A program made the position numbers and the translations under genes. A DNA stretch of 64,000 nt, taken from contig NC_057749.1 in the NCBI RefSeq assembly GCF_004010195.1, positions 13,762,543-13,826,542 on the forward strand, written 5' to 3'. Source of the DNA: Chiloscyllium plagiosum (taxonomy: Eukaryota). This document shows positions 12,999 through 46,789 of this stretch, one piece after another; positions within the stretch are counted from its first letter, which is position 1; each line of letters opens with the position of its first letter. Under the pieces are notes generated by a model. That model was not told the DNA's origin. It was given only the letters and a program-made list of their open reading frames with translations, and searched no databases.

Positions 12999-13782
12999 CA
13001 AGGTTTGTAGCTCAGGTTGAGGTTTAGGGTGTAGGTTTGCTCGCTGAGCTGTAGGTTTGATATCCAGACATTTCATTACCTGGCTAGGTAACATCATCAG
13101 TGGCGACCTCCAAGTGAAGCAAAGTTGTTGTCTCCTGCTTTCTATTTATATGTTTGTCCTGGATGGGGTTCCTGGGCTGGTGTTCGTGTATCCTGGTGGC
13201 TAACTTTCTTCCTGTTTGTCCTACGTAGTGTTTGTGGAATTACATGGAAATTTGTAGATGACATTGGTTTTGTCCGTGGGTTGTACTGGGTCTTTTAAGT
13301 TTGTTCATTTTTGTTTGAGAGTGTTGGTGGGTTTGTGTGCTACTAGGATTCCGAGGGGTCTTTGTAGTCTGGCTGTCAATTCTGAAACTTCTTTGCTGTA
13401 TGGTAAGGTGGTTAGGGTTTCTGGCTGTGTTTGGTCTGGATGTTGTGGTTTGTTCTTGAGGAATCTGCAGACTGTATTTTTTGAGTGTCCGTTCTTCTTG
13501 AATACGTTGTATAGGTGGTTCTCCTCTGTTTTCCGAAGTTCCGAAGCAAAGCACTCCAACCGTAACGCCATAAATAAACACATAGATCTAGATACCATCT
13601 ATCAACCCCTCAGTAAACGAACAGGAAATTACATCCCTAGGAGCGCCATTCAGGACAAACATATAAATAGAAAGCAGGAGACAAAGCTTCGCTTCACATG
13701 GAGGTCGCCACTGATGATGTTACCTAGCCAGGTAATGAAACGTCTGGATAGCAAACCTACAGCTCAGCGAGCAAACTTACAC
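12999..13782. mobile_element. Penelope-like element with inverted pLTRs and internal ORF remnant
   Basis: ~160-bp near-perfect inverted arms. Internal minus remnant EENHLYNVFKKNG...TLPY.KEVSELTARLQRPLGILVAHKPTNTLKQ. 14-bp TSD actagctgtccttg at 12985-12998 and 13783-13796. Confidence 0.9.
13707..13748 (+). ncRNA. Minimal type I hammerhead ribozyme motif in PLE pLTR
   Basis: cca CTGATGA T GTTACCT agcc AGGTAAT GAAA CGTC tgg: intact CUGAUGA/GAAA core, stem II, GUC cleavage triplet and stem I cca/tgg. Confidence 0.75.
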
Positions 13783-27882: not shown

Positions 27883-28009
27883 CTGTTTCTCCAGAATGCG
27901 ACTGATTTCTCCCAGAGTCCTGTCAAGCGAAGATACCTTGTTATTTGCCCAAGGTCCGCTATCCTGTCCTTGCAGCTGTTTCAGGAGATCTTTCACTAAT
28001 CTCTGAAGT
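27883..28009 (-). CDS. SCAPER: SCAPER internal coding exon (127 nt, phase 2-0)
   Basis: Minus strand ttttatctttgaatgtAG|A CTT CAG AGA...GAG AAA CAG|GTACTG translates to LQRLVKDLLKQLQGQDSGPWANNKVSSLDRTLGEISRILEKQ, matching recalled human LQRLAKDLLKQVQVQDSGSWANNKVSALDRTLGEITRILEKE. It joins the 66-nt exon in frame (AA+A = Lys). Confidence 0.95.
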
Positions 28010-28579
28010 CTACATTCAAAGATAAAATGTCAACTAAATTACTTCCACTGTTGGTTATTGACAGGAAATATTAAAATGGACATAAATAAAGAGATATATA
28101 CCCATTTGAATTGCTCTTATGACTAGGGCGCAAAACCATTAACCATCCTGAGCTGCCCTAAGAAATTATTGTGGGTCATTCTAGCAAAAATTCTTTCTTG
28201 GACAGTTGAGTGGTGTGCTAGGCACTTCAGACAGAGAGTTCAAAGTAAATCATGAAACATGGGATTAGAATTACATTTAGGACCAATCAGGTGAGGAAGA
28301 CAGAATTACTTGATGGAAAGATTGCAGTGGAGCAGTTGGGTTTCAGATAACAATGCCCTTGCTTGCAAGTTTAAGTTTATTTTCTGAACACTAGTTCACA
28401 AATAATCAGATTTATTGAATTCTGGAATGATGAGGTTTAAGTGCAATCCTTGGTTTGCTAATTCTATGTCACTATGACATCAACACACCCAAAAAATCCA
28501 AGTTGGTAAAGTATACTCTCCAATTCATATGAACATGGCTGTTTGGGCCCTCAAGCCTGCACTGCTGTTTCAGAACTGC

Positions 28580-36115: not shown

Positions 36116-37388
36116 TATCCAATTGGAGCTCCATTCGCTGGAGCAATCAAACGATGTTACGAAACATCTGCAGTTGTGCTTGCTAACACTCCTGAACATG
36201 CACACTAGCAGCGAAATCAGTCAGCAGGCATGCAGTGTATTGATAATATATTTATGATCTTTCTGATGTTAATTAAACCAGCTCACACTACTAGACTTCC
36301 AACCAAGTTCCTCTTGAAAAGCATATAGAACTCATTGGCAGGAATTACGTTTTTTTCAGCAAAGATGCAAGATTAATCATAATTTTTAAGAGGTCTTTTT
36401 TGAGTTAAAGAAAACAGAAGTCAAGTTTTCTCTTAAAATCATAATTTTGCATACACTCCTTTTCTCCTCAGCTCAACAAAGACACTTACTCATGCACGTT
36501 TTGGCTGCACAGGTGCTCCCTCAAATGGCTCTGTGAGGCAACAATGAATATTCCTAATTGGCATGGGCCGCCTCTCAGCTGAATGCAATATCATCCTCAG
36601 CTAAGGACTGCCAAGCAGTTTTAAAGCAGGGATAACTTAATATTAGTCAGAAGCAGGGGGGCCAAACTGATTTAAGTCATCCTTTCCCAGTAAGAAAATG
36701 TTAACAACCCAGCAGAAATCAACTTCATTTTATTTGGGCTTTAGATCAACTTGAGACTCTTGCTTTCTTTGGCTTATATCTACAGTCGGTAACACCATAC
36801 ACTTTTAAGAAATGTTTCTTAGCAATAAATGCCAAACTAATTAACACTATTGCTTTGTTCTATTTCAGCTGTGTACAGAGCACTTAAGTGTGGGAGAAAC
36901 AGAAGCACAAGTTATTTTCTATAATCTTCAACACTTTGAAAAATTCTTTGTAATAAGGACATAAGGCAGATATCCATCAACCAAATAGCAGATATCAATG
37001 TCAATCCTTGACTTTTTTTTAATTGTAATTTAATTTGTGTCTTTTTATGCTCTCCTTTCCTTTGTTGTTTCAACTCTTCCCAATTATTTGTACAGCCCAT
37101 TAAATCCACTGCAACATTTCGGATTGTTCAATTTATGATCTTCACCTCTTCATACTTTTGTTTTTAGAACTGTAACAAAGGTACTTACCGATCTTTCTTC
37201 TGAGGAAACGTTTTTTTCTTTGAAGATAGATTTATGATGTATTTCCAGCATTATCTGTTTTTATTACAGCTCCTAACTCCCGAAGGCAGAAAATTTTAGC
37301 ATTAAACAATGGCTGCTTTTAAATGTACGGTCTGGATATGATGCAATCGCTACTCACAATTGTTAATATCTGTTTATAAAGTACTTAC

Positions 37389-37454
37389 TTAGCTTTGAAG
37401 GGCGAATCTGGAATCTGAGCTTTGGCTTCCAGTGAGCTTTCATACTCTTTGCCC
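37389..37454 (-). CDS. SCAPER: SCAPER internal coding exon (66 nt, phase 2-2)
   Basis: Minus strand reads cattatgtacAG|G GGC AAA GAG TAT GAA AGC TCA CTG GAA GCC AAA GCT CAG ATT CCA GAT TCG CCC TTC AAA GCT AA|GTAAGT. This translates to (R)GKEYESSLEAKAQIPDSPFKA(K), matching the recalled human SCAPER segment RAKEYESLMETKNSGSDSPYKAK. Confidence 0.93.
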
Positions 37455-37928
37455 CTGTACATAATGAACACAAGACATTCATTAAAACCTTAATTGTTGT
37501 TTATTATACTAATCAAAAGTGACCAGGATAAATCTGCATGGTTTTCAAAAATAAAGAGATTGTTTCTTCTGGTCATGTCTCTCCCTTCCTTCAAGGCCTG
37601 TTTCTGACTGCACTGTCAGTATAAACACCTACTGGGGCTCCCCATCACTTGTGAAATGCTCAACGATGCCCTTTCTTCAAAAGCACAAAAAATGCCAGTT
37701 GTTTCAGGATTATGTCACTCTTTCTATTACATGGTAAAAATATTCAGATCAATTTCACAGCATGTACCATTTCATGGTATTTCATAAATGGCCCCTGCAA
37801 GACCAACAAAACATCCAGCTACAAACCAACCTTTCCGAGCTAATCCTATTGACTTTTGATCATTTTAATGCTGTTTATAAATGTACATGCACCCCAATTA
37901 TAATCGGTCCATAATTGGCAGATGTTCC

Positions 37929-40744: not shown

Positions 40745-42300
40745 TGTCTTTTTTTTATTTTTTTAAAGAATTTTATTAAACAGTACAAGTTACATCCAAA
40801 CAGTTAACAATGAACAGCAGTTTACAAAAAAAACCCAGCAATTTACAGAGGAAAGGGGCAGCAAAGCCAGACCCCCAAACCCCACCGTACAACCAGTTCA
40901 CAGGGAAAAGAGGACAAACCTCAAATCCCACCTGATCAGATCAAAAAGGAAACAGTCCGAGAAACCAAACAATAAAAGAGTGCATATAACACATATTCCC
41001 CTGGCAACCCAGCAAACCACCCTCTCCTCTCCCCTTCCGGCTACTCAAAGGCAGCCCGCCCCAATGCCCCTTCCAGCTCTTGGTCTGCCGTGACACACCT
41101 TCCAGCCACCTCCAGGACCATCCGCCTTGGTACCTTCCTGGAGTGACAGCACTGAGGACAGCACTATGCCCTCCAGTTCTCAGTCTGCCCCTACAAACCA
41201 TCTGACTCTCGCCCACCTGGATATGCCATCCAGCCTGTGGACTGCCCTGACAGACGTCCGAGCTGTGTCTCAACCAACTCGTTCCCCTTTCCTGAGATGA
41301 AGGTGCACAGGGCAGCCCACAGGCCTTCTGGATCCTGGCCTGCCCCTACGCACATTCTGGCTCTTGGCTGCTCCAACTTCTGGCCACCTCTAGGACAGCC
41401 CATCCCGATTACCCCTTCTCGGGACGCAGCGCTCAGAATGGCACACTCACCTTCTGGCTTTCGGGGTGATTGGCGTCAGGATGCCCTACCCACCTTCCGA
41501 CTCTTGGGACAGCCTACCCACCTTCTGGTTCTCAGGACGGCCTATCCAACCTCAGGCTCTTGGGACAGCTTTTTGGGATGACCTATGAGTCTCCCAGCTC
41601 ACAGTGAGGCCTGCCAGACCAAGGAACACACAAGACAGTGTGGGTGATAAACCCAACAAGCAACATGACAGAGTTAATTATCAACAAACAGAATCACTTC
41701 TGGTACACAGAATCCATTACCAAAACAGTTTTCTTCAGAATGCAGAGTCCATTCCCAAGAACAGAGTCCACTCTAGTGTGCAAAGTGCATTGTTAGGAAT
41801 AGAGTCCACTCCAGTATGCAGAATCCATTGCCAGAAAATGAGTCCACAACACAACCAAAAGCAGAGTCCACAACCAAAAGCAGAGTCCACAACCAAAAGC
41901 AGAGTCCACTCCAGTGTGCAGAGTCCACTCCTGAAGGCAGCAAATGCATACCCCACAGCGCACACACAGGCATTCGGTCTCCATAGAGGCCTGGTTCATC
42001 CACAGAGAACCAGACCCACTTACAGGAATATAGTTCATTGTAAAAGGTGCAGCTAACTCACAGGGATGGTCCACTCCAACAGGCAGGGTCCAATCCAGGA
42101 TGCAGCAAATGCTCACCTCCCAGCACACGCACAGATGTTCAGTCTTTACTGAGGTATATTCCACCCACAGAGGAACTGTTCATCTGGAAAAGTGCATTAT
42201 CTGATAGGGGACTCAGTCCAACACCAAAAAAGTGAAGACACATGGGAAAAAACAAAGAAAACCAGAACAAAAGGGCTAAGACCTGCCACAAAATCAACAT
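40745..42300 (-). mobile_element. Unclassified polyA-tailed retroelement segment with internal tandem repeats
   Basis: Minus strand ends in AATAAA plus an A-rich tail at 40745-40780. Abrupt shift to C-rich composition on +. Internal ~28-bp and ~19-bp repeat arrays. Confidence 0.45.
41690..41932. repeat. Degenerate ~19-bp minisatellite (core cagagtccac)
   Basis: gcagagtccacaaccaaaa occurs twice exactly from 41861, plus about 8 degenerate units. Confidence 0.8.
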
Positions 42301-43104
42301 AATCCTTGAGATTTGGTATTCTAGTAATTCTATCCTGATCAGTACAAAAAGCTTCAAACAGCATTTCCCGTTTCAAAAAAGTAAATTGATTTTGAAAGGA
42401 CGTCAGCCCCCTGAAATGTTATCTGAACTTTCCCCACAAATGCTGACGAAATGTGATGAGTATTTCCAGACAATCCTGTTTAGATCAGACACTTTGTGGG
42501 AGTGTTATCGGACAAAATAAAATCACCACGGGCCAGATAAGGCAATACGAAACAAGATGACCCAAAGCTTTATTGAAGGGATAGGTTTTAAGGAGCAGCA
42601 AAAGGCAGTTTCAGAGCTTAGGGCCTCGACAGCTGAAAGGACTGTCTTCAATGGTGAAATAAATAGGTAGCACAGCCACAATAAGAGACAGGCTGCATGA
42701 GCTGTCCATCTCCCAGCAGCTGAGTCAGTTCACCCAGCAGTTCATTTCTCCTCTCCTGCCTTCCTCTACGGAGGTCATGTGGCATGTAAAAACCCATAAT
42801 CTGTTTTCCCCTCACATGGTTCAGGTATCTGGACATCATTTACTGCCTGTCCCTAATAGCCCTGGAGAATGGGGTACATGGAGTATACATTGCATGGGTA
42901 TACACACTGCTGTTGGAGATGGAGTTACAAGATCTGTATCTCACCACAATAAAAGAACACTGATACATTTCCACGTCTGCTGCCCTTGGCCTTCTGGATG
43001 GTGAGGCCATGGGTTTGGAAGTGTTACTGATGGAGTATGGGTGATTTATTGCAACGTGGTCAACCTTGTGATTGAAGGAAGGTCATTAATGTACCAATGA
43101 AGAT

Positions 43105-44330
43105 CATAGAGTCATAGAGATGTACAGCATGGAAACAGACCCTTCAGTCCAACTCGTCCACGCCGACCAGATATCCGAACCTAATTTGGTACCATTTGCC
43201 AGCCCTTGACCCATATCTCTCTAAACCCTTCCTATTCATATACCCATCCAGATGCCTTTTAAATGTTGCAATTGTACCAGCCTCTACCACTTCCTCTGGC
43301 AGCTCATTCCATACATGCACCACCCTCTGTGTGAAAATGTTGACTCTTAGGTCCCTTTTATATGTTTTCCCTCTCACCCTAAACATATGCCCTTTAGCTC
43401 TGGACTCCCTCACCACAGGGAAAAGACATTGTCTATTTACCCTAACCATGCCCCTCATGATTTTGTAAACCTTTATGAGGTCACTCCTCACACTCAGACA
43501 CTGCAGGGAAAACTGCCAAAGCCTATTCAGCTTCTCCTTATAGCTCAAACCCTCCAATCCTGGTATCATCCTCAAAATCTTTTCTGAACCCTTTCAAGTT
43601 TCACAACATCTTTCCGATAGAAAGGAGACCAGCATTGCATGCAATATTCCAAAAGTGACCGAACCAACATCCTGTACAACTGCAACATGACCTCCCAACT
43701 CCTTTACTCAATGCTCTGACCAATAAAGGAAAGCATACTAAACGCCTTCTTCACTATCCTATCCACCTGTGACTCTACTTTCAGGGAGCTATGAAGCTGC
43801 ACTCCAAGGTCTCTTTGTTCAGCAACACTCCCTTGGACCTTGCCATTAAGTGTATAGGCCCTGCTAAGATTTGCTTTTCCAAAATGCAGCACCTCACATT
43901 TATTTAAATTAAATTCTATCTGCCACTCCTCAACGCATTGGCCCATCTGATTAAGATCCCATTATAATCTGAGGTAACCTTCTTTGCTGTCCACTACACC
44001 TCCAATTTTGGTGTCATCTGCAAACTTACTAACCATACCTCCTACGTTCACGTCCAAATTATATAAATGATAAAAAGAGTGGACCCAGCCCACTGATCCT
44101 TGTGGCCCTCCACTGGCCCCAAGTCTCTAGTCTGAAAAGCAACCCTCTACCACCAAACTCTGTTTTCTCCTTTCAAGTCTGTTCTATAGCCAAATGTCTA
44201 GTCCACCCTGTATTCCATAAGATCTAAACTTGCTAACCAATCTCCCATGGGCAACCTTGTTGAACGCCATAGTTAATCCATATAGATCATGTCCACCACT
44301 CTGCCCTCATCAATCCTTCTGTTACCTCTT
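43105..44330 (-). mobile_element. CR1 LINE 3' ~1.2 kb
   Basis: RMIPGLEGLSYKEKLNRL...DLIKVYKIMRG. Same subfamily as 34020-35143, in opposite orientation. Confidence 0.95.
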
Positions 44331-44365
44331 CCTCCAGTGATAGTAATTTTCTTGAGTTCCTTTCT

Positions 44366-44863
44366 GGATGTAGGTTTGCCCCCAGACACCTCGCCACCAC
44401 ACTAGGCAACATCATCAGCGAGCCTCCAGATGAAGCACTGGCGGCATGGCCAGCCCCCTATTTGTATGTCTGGGCCTCCCTGGGCCGGTGATGTCACTTC
44501 CTCTGGTGATGTCATTTCTTGTTCTTCTCCCGGGGGGTGGCAAATGGGATCCAAGCCAACGCCTCCACCGATAGAGTTCCAGCCAGAATGCTTAGAAGCA
44601 TGGCATTCCAACCGGAACTCCACCAACAAAGACACCGACCCGCATCTCATCCACCACCCCCAGAGAAAAAAGAACAGGAAAGGACGTCACCAACCCAAGC
44701 ACACAAACAGAAAGTAGGCCATGCCACCAACGCTTCATTTGGAGGCACACCAACGACGCCACCCAGCACAGCGACGAAATGTCCGAAAACTAACTCTCCA
44801 GCTCAGTGAGCAAACCTAAATCCAGAACCTCAACCTGAGCTACAAATCTTCTCAAAACTCGCC
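44366..44863. mobile_element. Penelope fold-back element with T>C hypermutation
   Basis: Same pLTR family as 2668-2874 and 3727-3840. Hairpin centre gaatgc-ttagaagcatg-gcattc at ~44586-44608. TSD gagttcctttct at 44354-44365 and 44864-44875. Confidence 0.85.
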
Positions 44864-45204
44864 GAGTTCCTTTCTCCCTACTTTTCCTGACCTATATCTT
44901 ACTAGTAGACACTATGGCAGGCTTCACTAACATACGAGCCATCAGGCCATTGTACAAGATACAGTCAAACGTGACTGCAAGGTTAAGGGTTTATACGATT
45001 TTCCAATTCACAATTTCTCTCCCATGATTGTTGCTAATGGATTCCTCTCCGGTTTACTGCCCCTTCACCTTAGCTAGCCCAACTCTCAAACCCTCATAAC
45101 TGTCTTAACTAAGTTGCAGATACTAGTCACTTTTCACTCCTCAAACTGAAAGTAGAATTTAATCATATTATGGTCACTACTTCCCTGGGAAGAGTTCACT
45201 GATT

Positions 45205-45335
45205 CATCAGCGCTGCTGGGGGGGTGGGGGAAACACTGACGTCATGTCATCCCCCACGTGTCTTTGATCACGTGATCAGAGCCCCGCCCCTCCTGGTCTT
45301 GCGCCTTAACATGGCGGCAGTGAATCCGTGGCTTG
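45205..45335 (+). promoter_or_regulatory. Promoter-like motif cluster in a CpG-rich patch
   Basis: TGACGTCA 45237-45244, CACGTG 45255-45260, TGATCACGTGATCA 45265-45278, GCCCCGCCCC 45281-45290, AACATGGCGGC 45308-45318. Confidence 0.55.
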
Positions 45336-45340
45336 GTACT

Positions 45341-45492
45341 TTAGATTAGATTCCCTACAGTGTGGAAACAGGCCCTTCAGCCCAACAAGTCCATACCGAC
45401 CCTCTGAAGAGTAACCCACCCCCCCTCTGACTAATGCACCTAACTACTATGGACAATTTAGCATGGCCAATTCACCTGACCTGCACATCTTT
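45341..45492 (-). mobile_element. HE1/V-SINE 3' fragment
   Basis: ttagattagattccctacagtgtggaaacaggccc...gcatggccaattcacct matches 55976-56140. Confidence 0.85.
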
Positions 45493-46210
45493 TCTACTGC
45501 ACTGCTCATTCGGTTAAAAAACAGTTCAACAGACTGAAGTGAAACTGTGTCTTCAAGTCGTACTTATATTTAAAATTAAAATAACTGGAGTGCGACCAAT
45601 TCCATTGCCTTGCACCAATTCCCTCTTTTACCTCAGTAGGGGAGAGTTTTCCATGCGCTCACGTTTTTTTTGTGCGGGTGTCGGATATTCCGGTTTGGGG
45701 GTGGGGAACCCACCGATGCCGGCTCCGGTGTTGACCGCAACAGCGGGGATTACGTTTGAGAGAAAACATCTTTTTGTCTATTAATAAAAACAATTCAGTT
45801 TAAAACAAAACGCTGTTTGCAATCCTAAACCAGAATGAAATCAAATTCAAAAAGAATCCTTGATTTACCTTCCTTGCCTACGGACACCCATAAGCTCTCT
45901 CGAAGGCAGTGATTCACACTGGGGTAAAATTCATTTTTATAAAACATTGCCCAATAGTCAAATTGCCAATTTTGAAAAATGAACCCAGACAGTGTGCTAC
46001 TAGACTGGTCAACAATGGAAGGGCCTTACAACCCCATCTGATCTGATACCTGCATATGCACTTTCCAGAAAACGTCACAACTGGAAGCAAGAAACTGACT
46101 TCTTGCAATCCAACATCGCACCAGGACACTGCATATGCTGTGTTAAAATTTTTTGATGTTATGAACGTGGTAAATAATGTGGTAATACTCAGATAATCTG
46201 TTTTAATAGT

Positions 46211-46789
46211 TTTTGTGGTTCTGTTCGCCGAGCTGGGAATTTGTGTTGCAGACGTTTTGTCCCCTGTCTAGGTGACATCCTCAGTGCTTGGGAGCCTCTT
46301 GTGAAGCGCTTCTGTGATCTTTCCTCCGCCATTTGTAGTGGTTTGAATCTGCCACTGAATCATTTCCGAACTGACAGCCAGACTACTGCAACCACTAGGA
46401 CTCAAACAGCACACAAACCAACAGCCACTCTCAGACAACAACTCACCAGAACGAAGGACCCGATACCCAGCATGAGCAAAACCAATGTAGTGTACAAAAT
46501 CCCATGCAAGGACTGCACAAAACACTACATAGGACAAACAGGAAGACAGCTAACGATCTGCATCCATGAACACCAACTAGCCACGAAACGACACGACCAG
46601 CTATCCTTAGCAGTCAAAACCACTACAAATGGCGAAGGAAAGATCACAGAAGCGCTTCACAGGAGGCTCCCAAGCACTGAGAATGTCACCTAGTCAGGGG
46701 ACGAAACGTCTGCAGCACAAATTCCCAGCTCGGCGAACAGAACCACAACAACGAGCACCCGAGCTAAAAATCTTCTCACAAACTCTGAA
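46211..46789. mobile_element. Penelope element with inverted pLTRs and internal GIY-YIG remnant
   Basis: Plus-strand SKTNVVYKIPCKDCTKHYIGQTGRQL..IHEHQLATKRHD; ~135-bp inverted arms; imperfect TSD ctgtttta..agt. Confidence 0.9.

Follow-up and report, generated by a model that had tools for sequence, protein, structure and literature searches.

A fold-back element in the genome of the shark Chiloscyllium plagiosum raises the question of how the two arms of one hairpin could both have changed in a single direction, on a single strand, at about half of the available sites. The element lies in a 64,000-nt stretch of contig NC_057749.1 (C40 below; positions 13,762,543 to 13,826,542), which we call the window; coordinates without a prefix are those of the window. 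A first-pass annotation of this DNA had proposed that a minus-strand transcript containing both arms was hyper-edited by an ADAR and then copied into germline DNA, either by remobilisation of the whole hairpin or by conversion of the locus from its own transcript. We compared the element with its family, with further copies of the same insertion and with independently assembled DNA, and weighed this proposal against processes acting on RNA and on DNA.

A fold-back element in an intron of SCAPER

The 498-bp fold-back occupies 44366-44863 (C40:13806908-13807405) and is bounded by a 12-bp direct repeat, GAGTTCCTTTCT, which is perfect on both sides, as the annotated intact TSD implied. The features of the locus are listed below.

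27883-28020, minus strand: SCAPER exon for amino acids 926-971 of protein P0019 (C40:13790425-13790562, E 1.2e-16)
37364-37459, minus strand: SCAPER exon for amino acids 906-938 of P0019 (C40:13799906-13800001, weak match, E 6e-4)
43104-44331, minus strand: CR1-like LINE fragment forming the left flank, with its 3' end at 43104 and 5'-truncated at 44331
43550-45766: stretch shared with at least 14 unplaced contigs, which carry an unedited fold-back inside a larger repeat
44354-44365: left copy of the TSD, GAGTTCCTTTCT; the pair is 100% identical, and C11 has one copy at its empty site
44366-44591, minus strand: left arm, the inverted, 5'-truncated 3' end of a Penelope-like element without its last ~43 nt; T>C (plus strand) at 33 of 87 ancestral T sites
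44487-44522: 18-nt tandem duplication, in the left arm only; an unpaired bulge or sliding register in the hairpin
44592-44602: 11-nt loop at the centre of the palindrome
44603-44819, plus strand: paired part of the right arm, a sense copy of the element's 3' end; T>C at 25 of 42 ancestral T sites
44820-44863, plus strand: unpaired 3' tail of ~43 nt, nearly unaltered (1 of 10 T sites, that one being the last base)
44864-44875: right copy of the TSD, GAGTTCCTTTCT

Two deletions are confined to the C40 copy, one of 21 nt between 44381 and 44382 in the left arm and one of 10 nt after 44696 in the right arm. The junction of the LINE with the next 34 nt is common to the C40 copy, its paralogue on C11 and the unplaced copies. 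To the right of the element, 45341-45492 is a ~150-nt, very abundant young repeat with many copies 94-96% identical, and 45433-45488 are missing from the paralogous copies.

When the shark SCAPER protein P0019 was mapped, each of its 28 exon matches fell on the minus strand of C40, from 13938170 down to 13642800, in agreement with the strand that the first-pass annotation had given for this gene. The element is intronic, between the exons for amino acids 861-908 and 906-938. The latter, at 37364-37459, is the next exon downstream in the direction of transcription, and its neighbours at C40:13834755-898 and 13790425-562 match strongly. The whole window falls inside SCAPER.

Relatives of the element carry a reverse-transcriptase ORF upstream of the 3' end that forms the arms. 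The ORF of one relative (L015) matches eight longer database proteins, for five of which PF00078 is on record; RVT_1 was confirmed in P0125 (34.1 bits) and fell under the cut-off in P0122. Pfam returned no GIY-YIG match in five family ORFs, including the GIY-YIG-like stretch. A YKIPC...YIGQ...EH motif, which we take to be GIY-YIG, is visible by eye in the family ORF. The putative Penelope-like identity rests on the architecture, the reverse transcriptase and this by-eye motif. The architecture comprises an inverted 5'-truncated copy beside the main copy and a tail of 30-40 bp at one end, and insertions of Penelope-like elements have been described in the same terms, the two copies forming inverted repeats (Craig et al. 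2021, PMC8557442). Compared with the insertions described there, the fold-back is ordinary in its architecture and unusual only in the later one-strand change (PMC8557442). The database relatives of the ORF (P0121-P0128) also carry the recent Pfam families PF26215 and PF28514; one of them, P0124, is annotated as a kinase isoform and probably represents a gene model into which a transposon fragment was incorporated.

The editing had also been said to have destroyed the hammerhead cores of both arms. Searches with Rfam over the whole window and seven related loci, at gathering and E-value thresholds, found no hammerhead in the element or in any related copy, and the CTGATGA...GAAAC motif is kept in 2 of 27 relatives. 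The statement holds at the level of the motif only, and we regard it as weak.

T>C changes on one strand of both arms

When the 47-nt comparison behind the original proposal (reverse complement of 44381-44427 against 44741-44787) was repeated, the same 21 mismatches were recovered, namely ten T/C, ten G/A and one T/A, and all of the T/C and G/A mismatches share one direction. Over the whole arms, 23 T/C and 27 G/A mismatches stand against 3 C/T and 3 A/G, with five transversions and 118 matches (binomial p 1e-9 for 50 versus 6 by direction). For polarity, 27 independent copies of the family were fetched from the same genome and aligned. Against these copies the right arm shows 22 T>C changes, with its paired part altered at 21 of 37 T sites and its tail at 1 of 12, and the left arm, read as its reverse complement, shows A>G at 34 of 75 A sites. 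Each of the 27 relatives, scored in the same way against the others, had 0-8 T>C and 1-7 A>G. This polarity places the entire excess in T>C when the plus strand is read, equivalent to A>G on the minus strand, and it does so for both arms. The claim that the derived base is C on the plus strand in both arms was thus upheld by the 27 family copies, and equally by ten copies of the same insertion.

With the majority state of the unplaced copies as the reference, T>C on the plus strand affects 58 of the 129 ancestral T sites of both arms and A>G only 4 of the 113 A sites (Fisher p 7e-15), which leaves the spectrum clearly unbalanced. The level of T>C is ~45% overall, 38% in the left arm and 60% in the right. 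The arms contain seven G>A and six C>T changes, no excess on either strand, which disfavours APOBEC and general damage to single strands. On the same ground we rejected spontaneous or APOBEC deamination as a candidate; biased gene conversion was rejected because it is strand-symmetric. Changes other than T>C are about as frequent in the hairpin as in its flanks.

Two sister hairpins in the window, noted earlier as free of the bias, have 10 mismatches (12999-13782) and 6 mismatches (46211-46789), balanced in both cases. Likewise, 27 control inverted-repeat pairs, taken from the fetched loci and the window, were balanced, the largest asymmetry being 20 versus 6. The pair with this asymmetry (L026) was considered as a second edited case and rejected, as it has no T>C or A>G excess against its family.

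Since A>G falls on the minus strand and SCAPER is encoded on the minus strand, the changed strand is the sense strand of SCAPER pre-mRNA. It matches the transcript of its own locus, as would be expected of an in-place conversion.

The changes are limited to the paired parts of the hairpin

In 40-nt bins, 44-100% of the T sites are changed in every arm bin except 44486-44525. This bin, which holds the bulge, has changes at 2 of 20 T sites versus 56 of 102 in the other arm bins (p 1.8e-4). The tail bins are spared as well, with 1 of 12 T sites changed versus the same 56 of 102 (p 4e-3), and the right arm has its final T>C within the element at 44796. Sparing of the unpaired tail had been reported for 44820-44862, and over 44820-44863 one of ten T sites is changed. 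Both arms are also unaltered in the outermost 14-25 bp of the stem. A direct comparison of paired and unpaired sites in the present-day fold gave only p 0.07.

In the flanks, scored against the unplaced-copy majority, T>C is found at 3 of 44 T sites in 116 nt on the left and 3 of 34 in 117 nt on the right (6 of 78 for both). With C11 as the outgroup, T>C changes present only in C40 occur at 7 of 186 and 2 of 101 T sites of the flanks, and A>G changes at 3 of 164 and 0 of 70 A sites. Spread of the bias into tail and flanks had been named as evidence that would count against editing, and it is absent (tail 1 of 10, flanks 9 of 287 T sites). As a separate observation, the flanks 43550-44365 and 44864-45182 lean slightly towards the change seen in the hairpin (T>C 9/287 versus A>G 3/234, small numbers), which is what the non-template strand of a transcribed gene would be expected to show.

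RNA folding gave predictions that differ between the strands. Minus-strand RNA of an unedited paralogue is predicted to form a ~230-bp stem (-315 kcal/mol, z -28), in which the 18-nt duplication is an unpaired bulge; the long near-perfect duplex expected of an ADAR substrate is therefore present in this predicted fold. In the present minus strand the predicted stem is kept through G.U pairs (-288.6, z -17), and in the present plus strand it is largely lost (-174.7, z -8.7).

The same insertion exists unedited elsewhere in the genome

The closest genomic matches of the element are copies of the same insertion, not other insertions, with the same TSD, truncation points and flanks. On small unplaced contigs these copies have T where the C40 copy has C, in all ten that could be aligned, and their flanks diverge from C40 by ~8-11%. 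Beyond 45766 the unplaced contigs run into a short-period repeat rich in G+C and CpG (loci L054-L062 and L032-L041). At place 44337, paralogue-type bases have ~20 times the read depth of C40-type bases.

An older paralogue on C11 comprises the LINE fragment, the following 34 nt, one GAGTTCCTTTCT and the right flank with no fold-back, and thus represents the empty site. The low-copy left flank 42500-43103 has its sole other full copy beside the C11 locus, in inverted orientation. Because of this copy and the empty site, C40 and C11 share an old duplicated block, and the C40 locus is the resident one. The paralogous region on C11 (L063, C11:81727000-81736000, and C11:81724426-81725053) corresponds to ~41010-45182 of the window, and contains an inversion that breaks at the LINE 3' end (43103/43104). 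When the LINE part was polarised with eight unrelated LINE copies, 12 derived sites were shared by C40 and the unplaced copies, 3 by C40 and C11, and 1 by the unplaced copies and C11, giving the topology ((C40, unplaced), C11) with terminal branches of 28, 29 and 28 changes. The 12 sites are scattered over 43679-44203.

The unedited copies with identical TSD and flanks, together with the empty site on C11, show that the change arose in place after the insertion and involved no new retrotransposition. A retrotransposed edited copy would have its own insertion site and its own TSD, distinct from its source; the C40 copy has neither. Remobilisation of the whole hairpin is contradicted by these findings. 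Conversion in place from a minus-strand transcript is left standing as the route, with the step from RNA to DNA a matter of inference. No paralogue sharing the same edits was found, the best non-self sequence being 78-82% identical among 88 matches (40 of 4852 candidates scored). A subfamily in which the C-rich state is ancestral can likewise be set aside, with identity of at most 82% elsewhere and T in the ten paralogous copies of the same insertion. These sequences give the order of events as insertion of the LINE, duplication to C11, insertion of the fold-back in the C40 lineage, copying of 2.2 kb into a repeat that was later amplified, and finally ~50 extra T>C in the C40 copy only.

Because the C11 homology stops exactly at the 3' end of the LINE, we also considered the hairpin as a passenger of a LINE-driven retrocopy (5' transduction by the minus-strand CR1-like LINE 43104-44331). 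This candidate was rejected: 42500-43103 is paralogous to C11 too, and the shared derived sites are evenly spread. A search for a TSD around the composite of LINE and hairpin returned only chance matches of 8-10 nt.

The unedited palindrome is itself unstable. Central deletions occurred independently in L040, L039, L059 and L038, that is, in four of the six paralogous copies whose sequence extends across the centre (aligned to 44550-44720), and the loop is flipped in L003. These deletions and the flipped loop are indirect evidence that the palindrome is fragile. Runs of N fall exactly on the fold-back in L058, L060, L062 and L055.

The changed bases are real and predate lineage splits

DNA contigs of two studies under the same organism label (X1 records 5, 7 and 8; X2 records 21 and 22) match the edited sequence with 0-1 differences, which answers the call of the first-pass annotation for confirmation in raw data. 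X1 record 5 links a C40-type left flank to the edited arm with 0 differences. Under a second organism label, 44489-44615 is present with no substitution and a C40-type right junction with one. A contig under a third label (C; run X12 record 14) spans 44412-44699, where it shows 17 differences but retains at least 34 of the ~36 T>C sites. As the edited bases occur under all three labels, the change predates the split of the lineages that carry them.

The label C contig has the ancestral base at five ordinary changes found only in C40. It also has T at 44450, and three adjacent extra T>C at 44461-44463. The extra cluster may reflect a second event on the same strand, or a short back-conversion in the C40 lineage.

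A possible route from edited RNA to resident DNA

Change on one strand, in both arms, at about half of the sites, in the paired parts only and with no rise in C>T or G>A amounts to an ADAR-like pattern on a long perfect RNA duplex. In 1994, Polson and Bass reportedly found a ceiling of ~50% editing in long perfect dsRNA, which the ~45% level observed here fits. Such a pattern is what ADAR yields on a long RNA duplex (Zaranek et al. 2010, PMC2873906). Because the locus is resident, the edited information has to have gone back to that very position. We consider it moderately probable that ADAR-type hyper-editing of the intronic hairpin RNA was returned to germline DNA at the same locus, by cDNA conversion or RNA-templated break repair.

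The steps would be as follows. A Penelope-like element would have entered the SCAPER intron as a fold-back with two inverted arms of ~230 bp, an 11-nt loop and a 43-nt 3' tail. Its minus-strand pre-mRNA, or another minus-strand transcript, would have folded into a near-perfect ~230-bp RNA hairpin, and an ADAR-type deaminase would have turned about half of the adenosines into inosine wherever the two arms are paired. This RNA would then have been copied into DNA with inosine read as G, and the resident sequence replaced at the same locus, through recombination with the cDNA or, if the fragile palindrome had broken, through repair with the RNA as template. This would have taken place in the germline before the lineages under the three organism labels split. 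Exons of an A_deamin domain occur at six loci, evidence for the presence of such enzymes in the genome and no more; the window is rich in reverse transcriptases; and a palindrome with so short a spacer is a plausible break site. A further version, in which the fragile short-spacer palindrome was repaired from its own ADAR-edited pre-mRNA, possibly repeatedly, leaving inosine marks in the germline and disarming the palindrome without deletion, is possible but doubtful.

The sequence context of the changes favours ADAR weakly. On the edited strand, the fraction of changed sites falls in the order U (13/18), A (17/33), C (12/30) and G (9/26) for the 5' neighbour. A 5' G precedes 9 of 51 edited and 17 of 56 unedited sites (p 0.18), and the 3' neighbour is flat, with no enrichment of G. 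A 5' W precedes 30 of 51 edited versus 21 of 56 unedited sites (p 0.03), a preference that fits errors of polymerase eta equally well. Two findings count the other way. Both other hairpins of the same intron would also be present in the pre-mRNA and are unaffected, which speaks against ADAR, and the extra T>C at 44461-44463 and the missing change at 44450 under label C speak against a single event. Moreover, the evidence comes from a single locus, and we know of no established precedent in the vertebrate germline for RNA information returning to the same locus. The proposal of a hyper-edited minus-strand transcript copied into DNA thus came through the checks applied to it, with an unbalanced spectrum, T as the ancestral base, a spared tail and bases present in independent contigs; ADAR as the agent, RNA as the substrate and the return route to DNA are what we infer from them.

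Some of the same evidence would suit a strand-specific mutational process acting on the DNA of the palindrome, either error-prone refilling of one strand (polymerase eta type, A>G at WA) after repeated breaks or gaps provoked by the hairpin or transcription-associated damage to the non-template strand. The changed strand is indeed the non-template strand of SCAPER; the 5' W preference and the mild flank bias point the same way, the palindrome is unstable in its paralogous copies, and the extra T>C under label C would fit recurrence. However, to alter 45% of the sites such a process would need many rounds, always on the same strand, and the far commoner deamination of C shows no excess on that strand. 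The unpaired tail and bulge, which would be most exposed as single-stranded DNA, are spared, and neither the sister hairpins nor the 27 control inverted repeats show anything alike. We judge a DNA-level process of this kind unlikely. An assembly or sequencing artefact, or a C-rich subfamily, has a negligible chance of being the explanation: the edited sequence occurs in contigs of two studies and under two other organism labels, X1 record 5 joins the C40-type flank to the edited arm without a difference, none of the 88 matches belongs to a C-rich subfamily, and the 27 family copies have T.

Other readings keep the editing and change the way in which it reached the DNA. The edited RNA might have been retrotransposed elsewhere and the resident locus then altered by ectopic DNA-DNA conversion, the donor being lost or unassembled, or a cDNA from the minus-strand transcript of an unplaced copy might have converted the empty C40 site. 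Taken jointly, we hold these two variants to be quite improbable. The donor route uses established steps only, retrotransposition of edited RNA and ectopic conversion, and a donor could be missing from an assembly of 101,977 contigs with many N runs on fold-backs. Yet the search described above found no edited copy (best non-self 78-82%), and an antisense transcript of both arms would still be needed. The derived sites shared by C40 and the unplaced copies span the whole 780-nt LINE flank and are not clustered near the fold-back; because they are spread in this way, the fold-back did not arrive by a short conversion tract. Reverse transcription would be dispensable altogether if an ADAR had deaminated dA directly in an R-loop, with the minus DNA strand as its target and plus-strand RNA as the pairing partner of that strand. 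Zheng et al. in 2017 reportedly found that ADARs deaminate dA in DNA:RNA hybrids in vitro, and the in-place change would be accounted for. The efficiency of ADARs on such hybrids is reportedly low, however, with A-C mismatches favoured; the plus-strand RNA would have to be antisense to SCAPER; and both the sparing of tail and bulge and the change of the same strand in both arms would be left unexplained. Direct editing of the DNA is accordingly very improbable in our view.

If editing of the hairpin RNA and its return to the locus is the correct reading, clusters of A>G on one strand of genomic hairpins would be a signature of RNA-templated change that can be searched for genome-wide, and the event could be dated across sharks. 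It would also suggest that dangerous palindromes are neutralised by means other than deletion. Should repair from the locus's own pre-mRNA in particular be true, ADAR marks would be a natural barcode of RNA-to-DNA flow in vertebrate germlines. It has long been debated whether, in animal germlines, RNA information flows back to the chromosomal locus that it came from, and work in yeast, with reporters and on tumour genomes has supplied the evidence to date. The present locus is a natural experiment with its own controls, namely the same insertion unedited, an empty site, spared unpaired parts and a known transcribed strand.

Relation to known systems

The change is related to two known phenomena, the hyper-editing of inverted repeats by ADAR and the fossils that edited retroelements have left in genomes. 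Hyper-editing by ADAR has been described for inverted-repeat transposons in introns, such as pairs of Alu elements (Porath et al. 2014, PMC4365171; Zaranek et al. 2010, PMC2873906), and palindromic regions were noted as editing hot spots in the latter work (PMC2873906). The shark locus resembles these cases in that two inverted transposon copies in a pre-mRNA would form intramolecular dsRNA, with dense A>G on one strand within the duplex. In the cases described there, by contrast, the change is in the RNA only and the genome keeps A, whereas the shark locus has G in the genome under several organism labels. The depletion of upstream G is also fainter here, 9/51 versus 17/56, against 7.85% versus 30.3% in the hyper-editing reported there.

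Knisbacher and Levanon, in Ann N Y Acad Sci 2015, are said to have described ADAR-type clusters in retroelements. Clusters of G>A left by APOBEC are likewise known as genomic fossils of edited retroelements (Knisbacher and Levanon 2015/2016, PMC4866542). The shark locus shares with such fossils a single mismatch type, with direction and strand defined against relatives, which is read as fixed by reverse transcription. The fossils described there are new insertions at new sites, whereas the edited shark copy shares its TSD and flanks with unedited copies.

In yeast, RNA-templated repair and cDNA conversion were reportedly the subject of work by Derr and Strathern and by Keskin et al. RNA-templated repair of breaks has been shown experimentally in human cells, where the scar is the loss of a whole intron (Jalan et al. 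2025, PMC12065846), and related work on cDNA-mediated conversion and RNA-templated repair has been published (Jeon et al. 2024, PMC11390984). As in these systems, a transcript would at the shark locus be written back into the chromosome at its own place. The evidence in the work cited comes from reporters, yeast and tumour genomes; the proposed shark scar, inosine read as G, would be of a different kind, in the germline and on an evolutionary scale.

The same chain of steps appears in the contested hypothesis of deaminase-driven reverse-transcriptase mutagenesis of Steele, Lindley and co-workers (PMC5704389, PMC11817618, PMC12941027), in which an ADAR-edited pre-mRNA hairpin is reverse transcribed and replaces homologous DNA. 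That hypothesis concerns somatic hypermutation and cancer signatures and draws on statistical strand biases, whereas the shark locus has an internal control in the same insertion unedited. What is new here is that the edited and unedited states of one insertion coexist in a genome, and this coexistence points to transfer from RNA to DNA at a resident locus.
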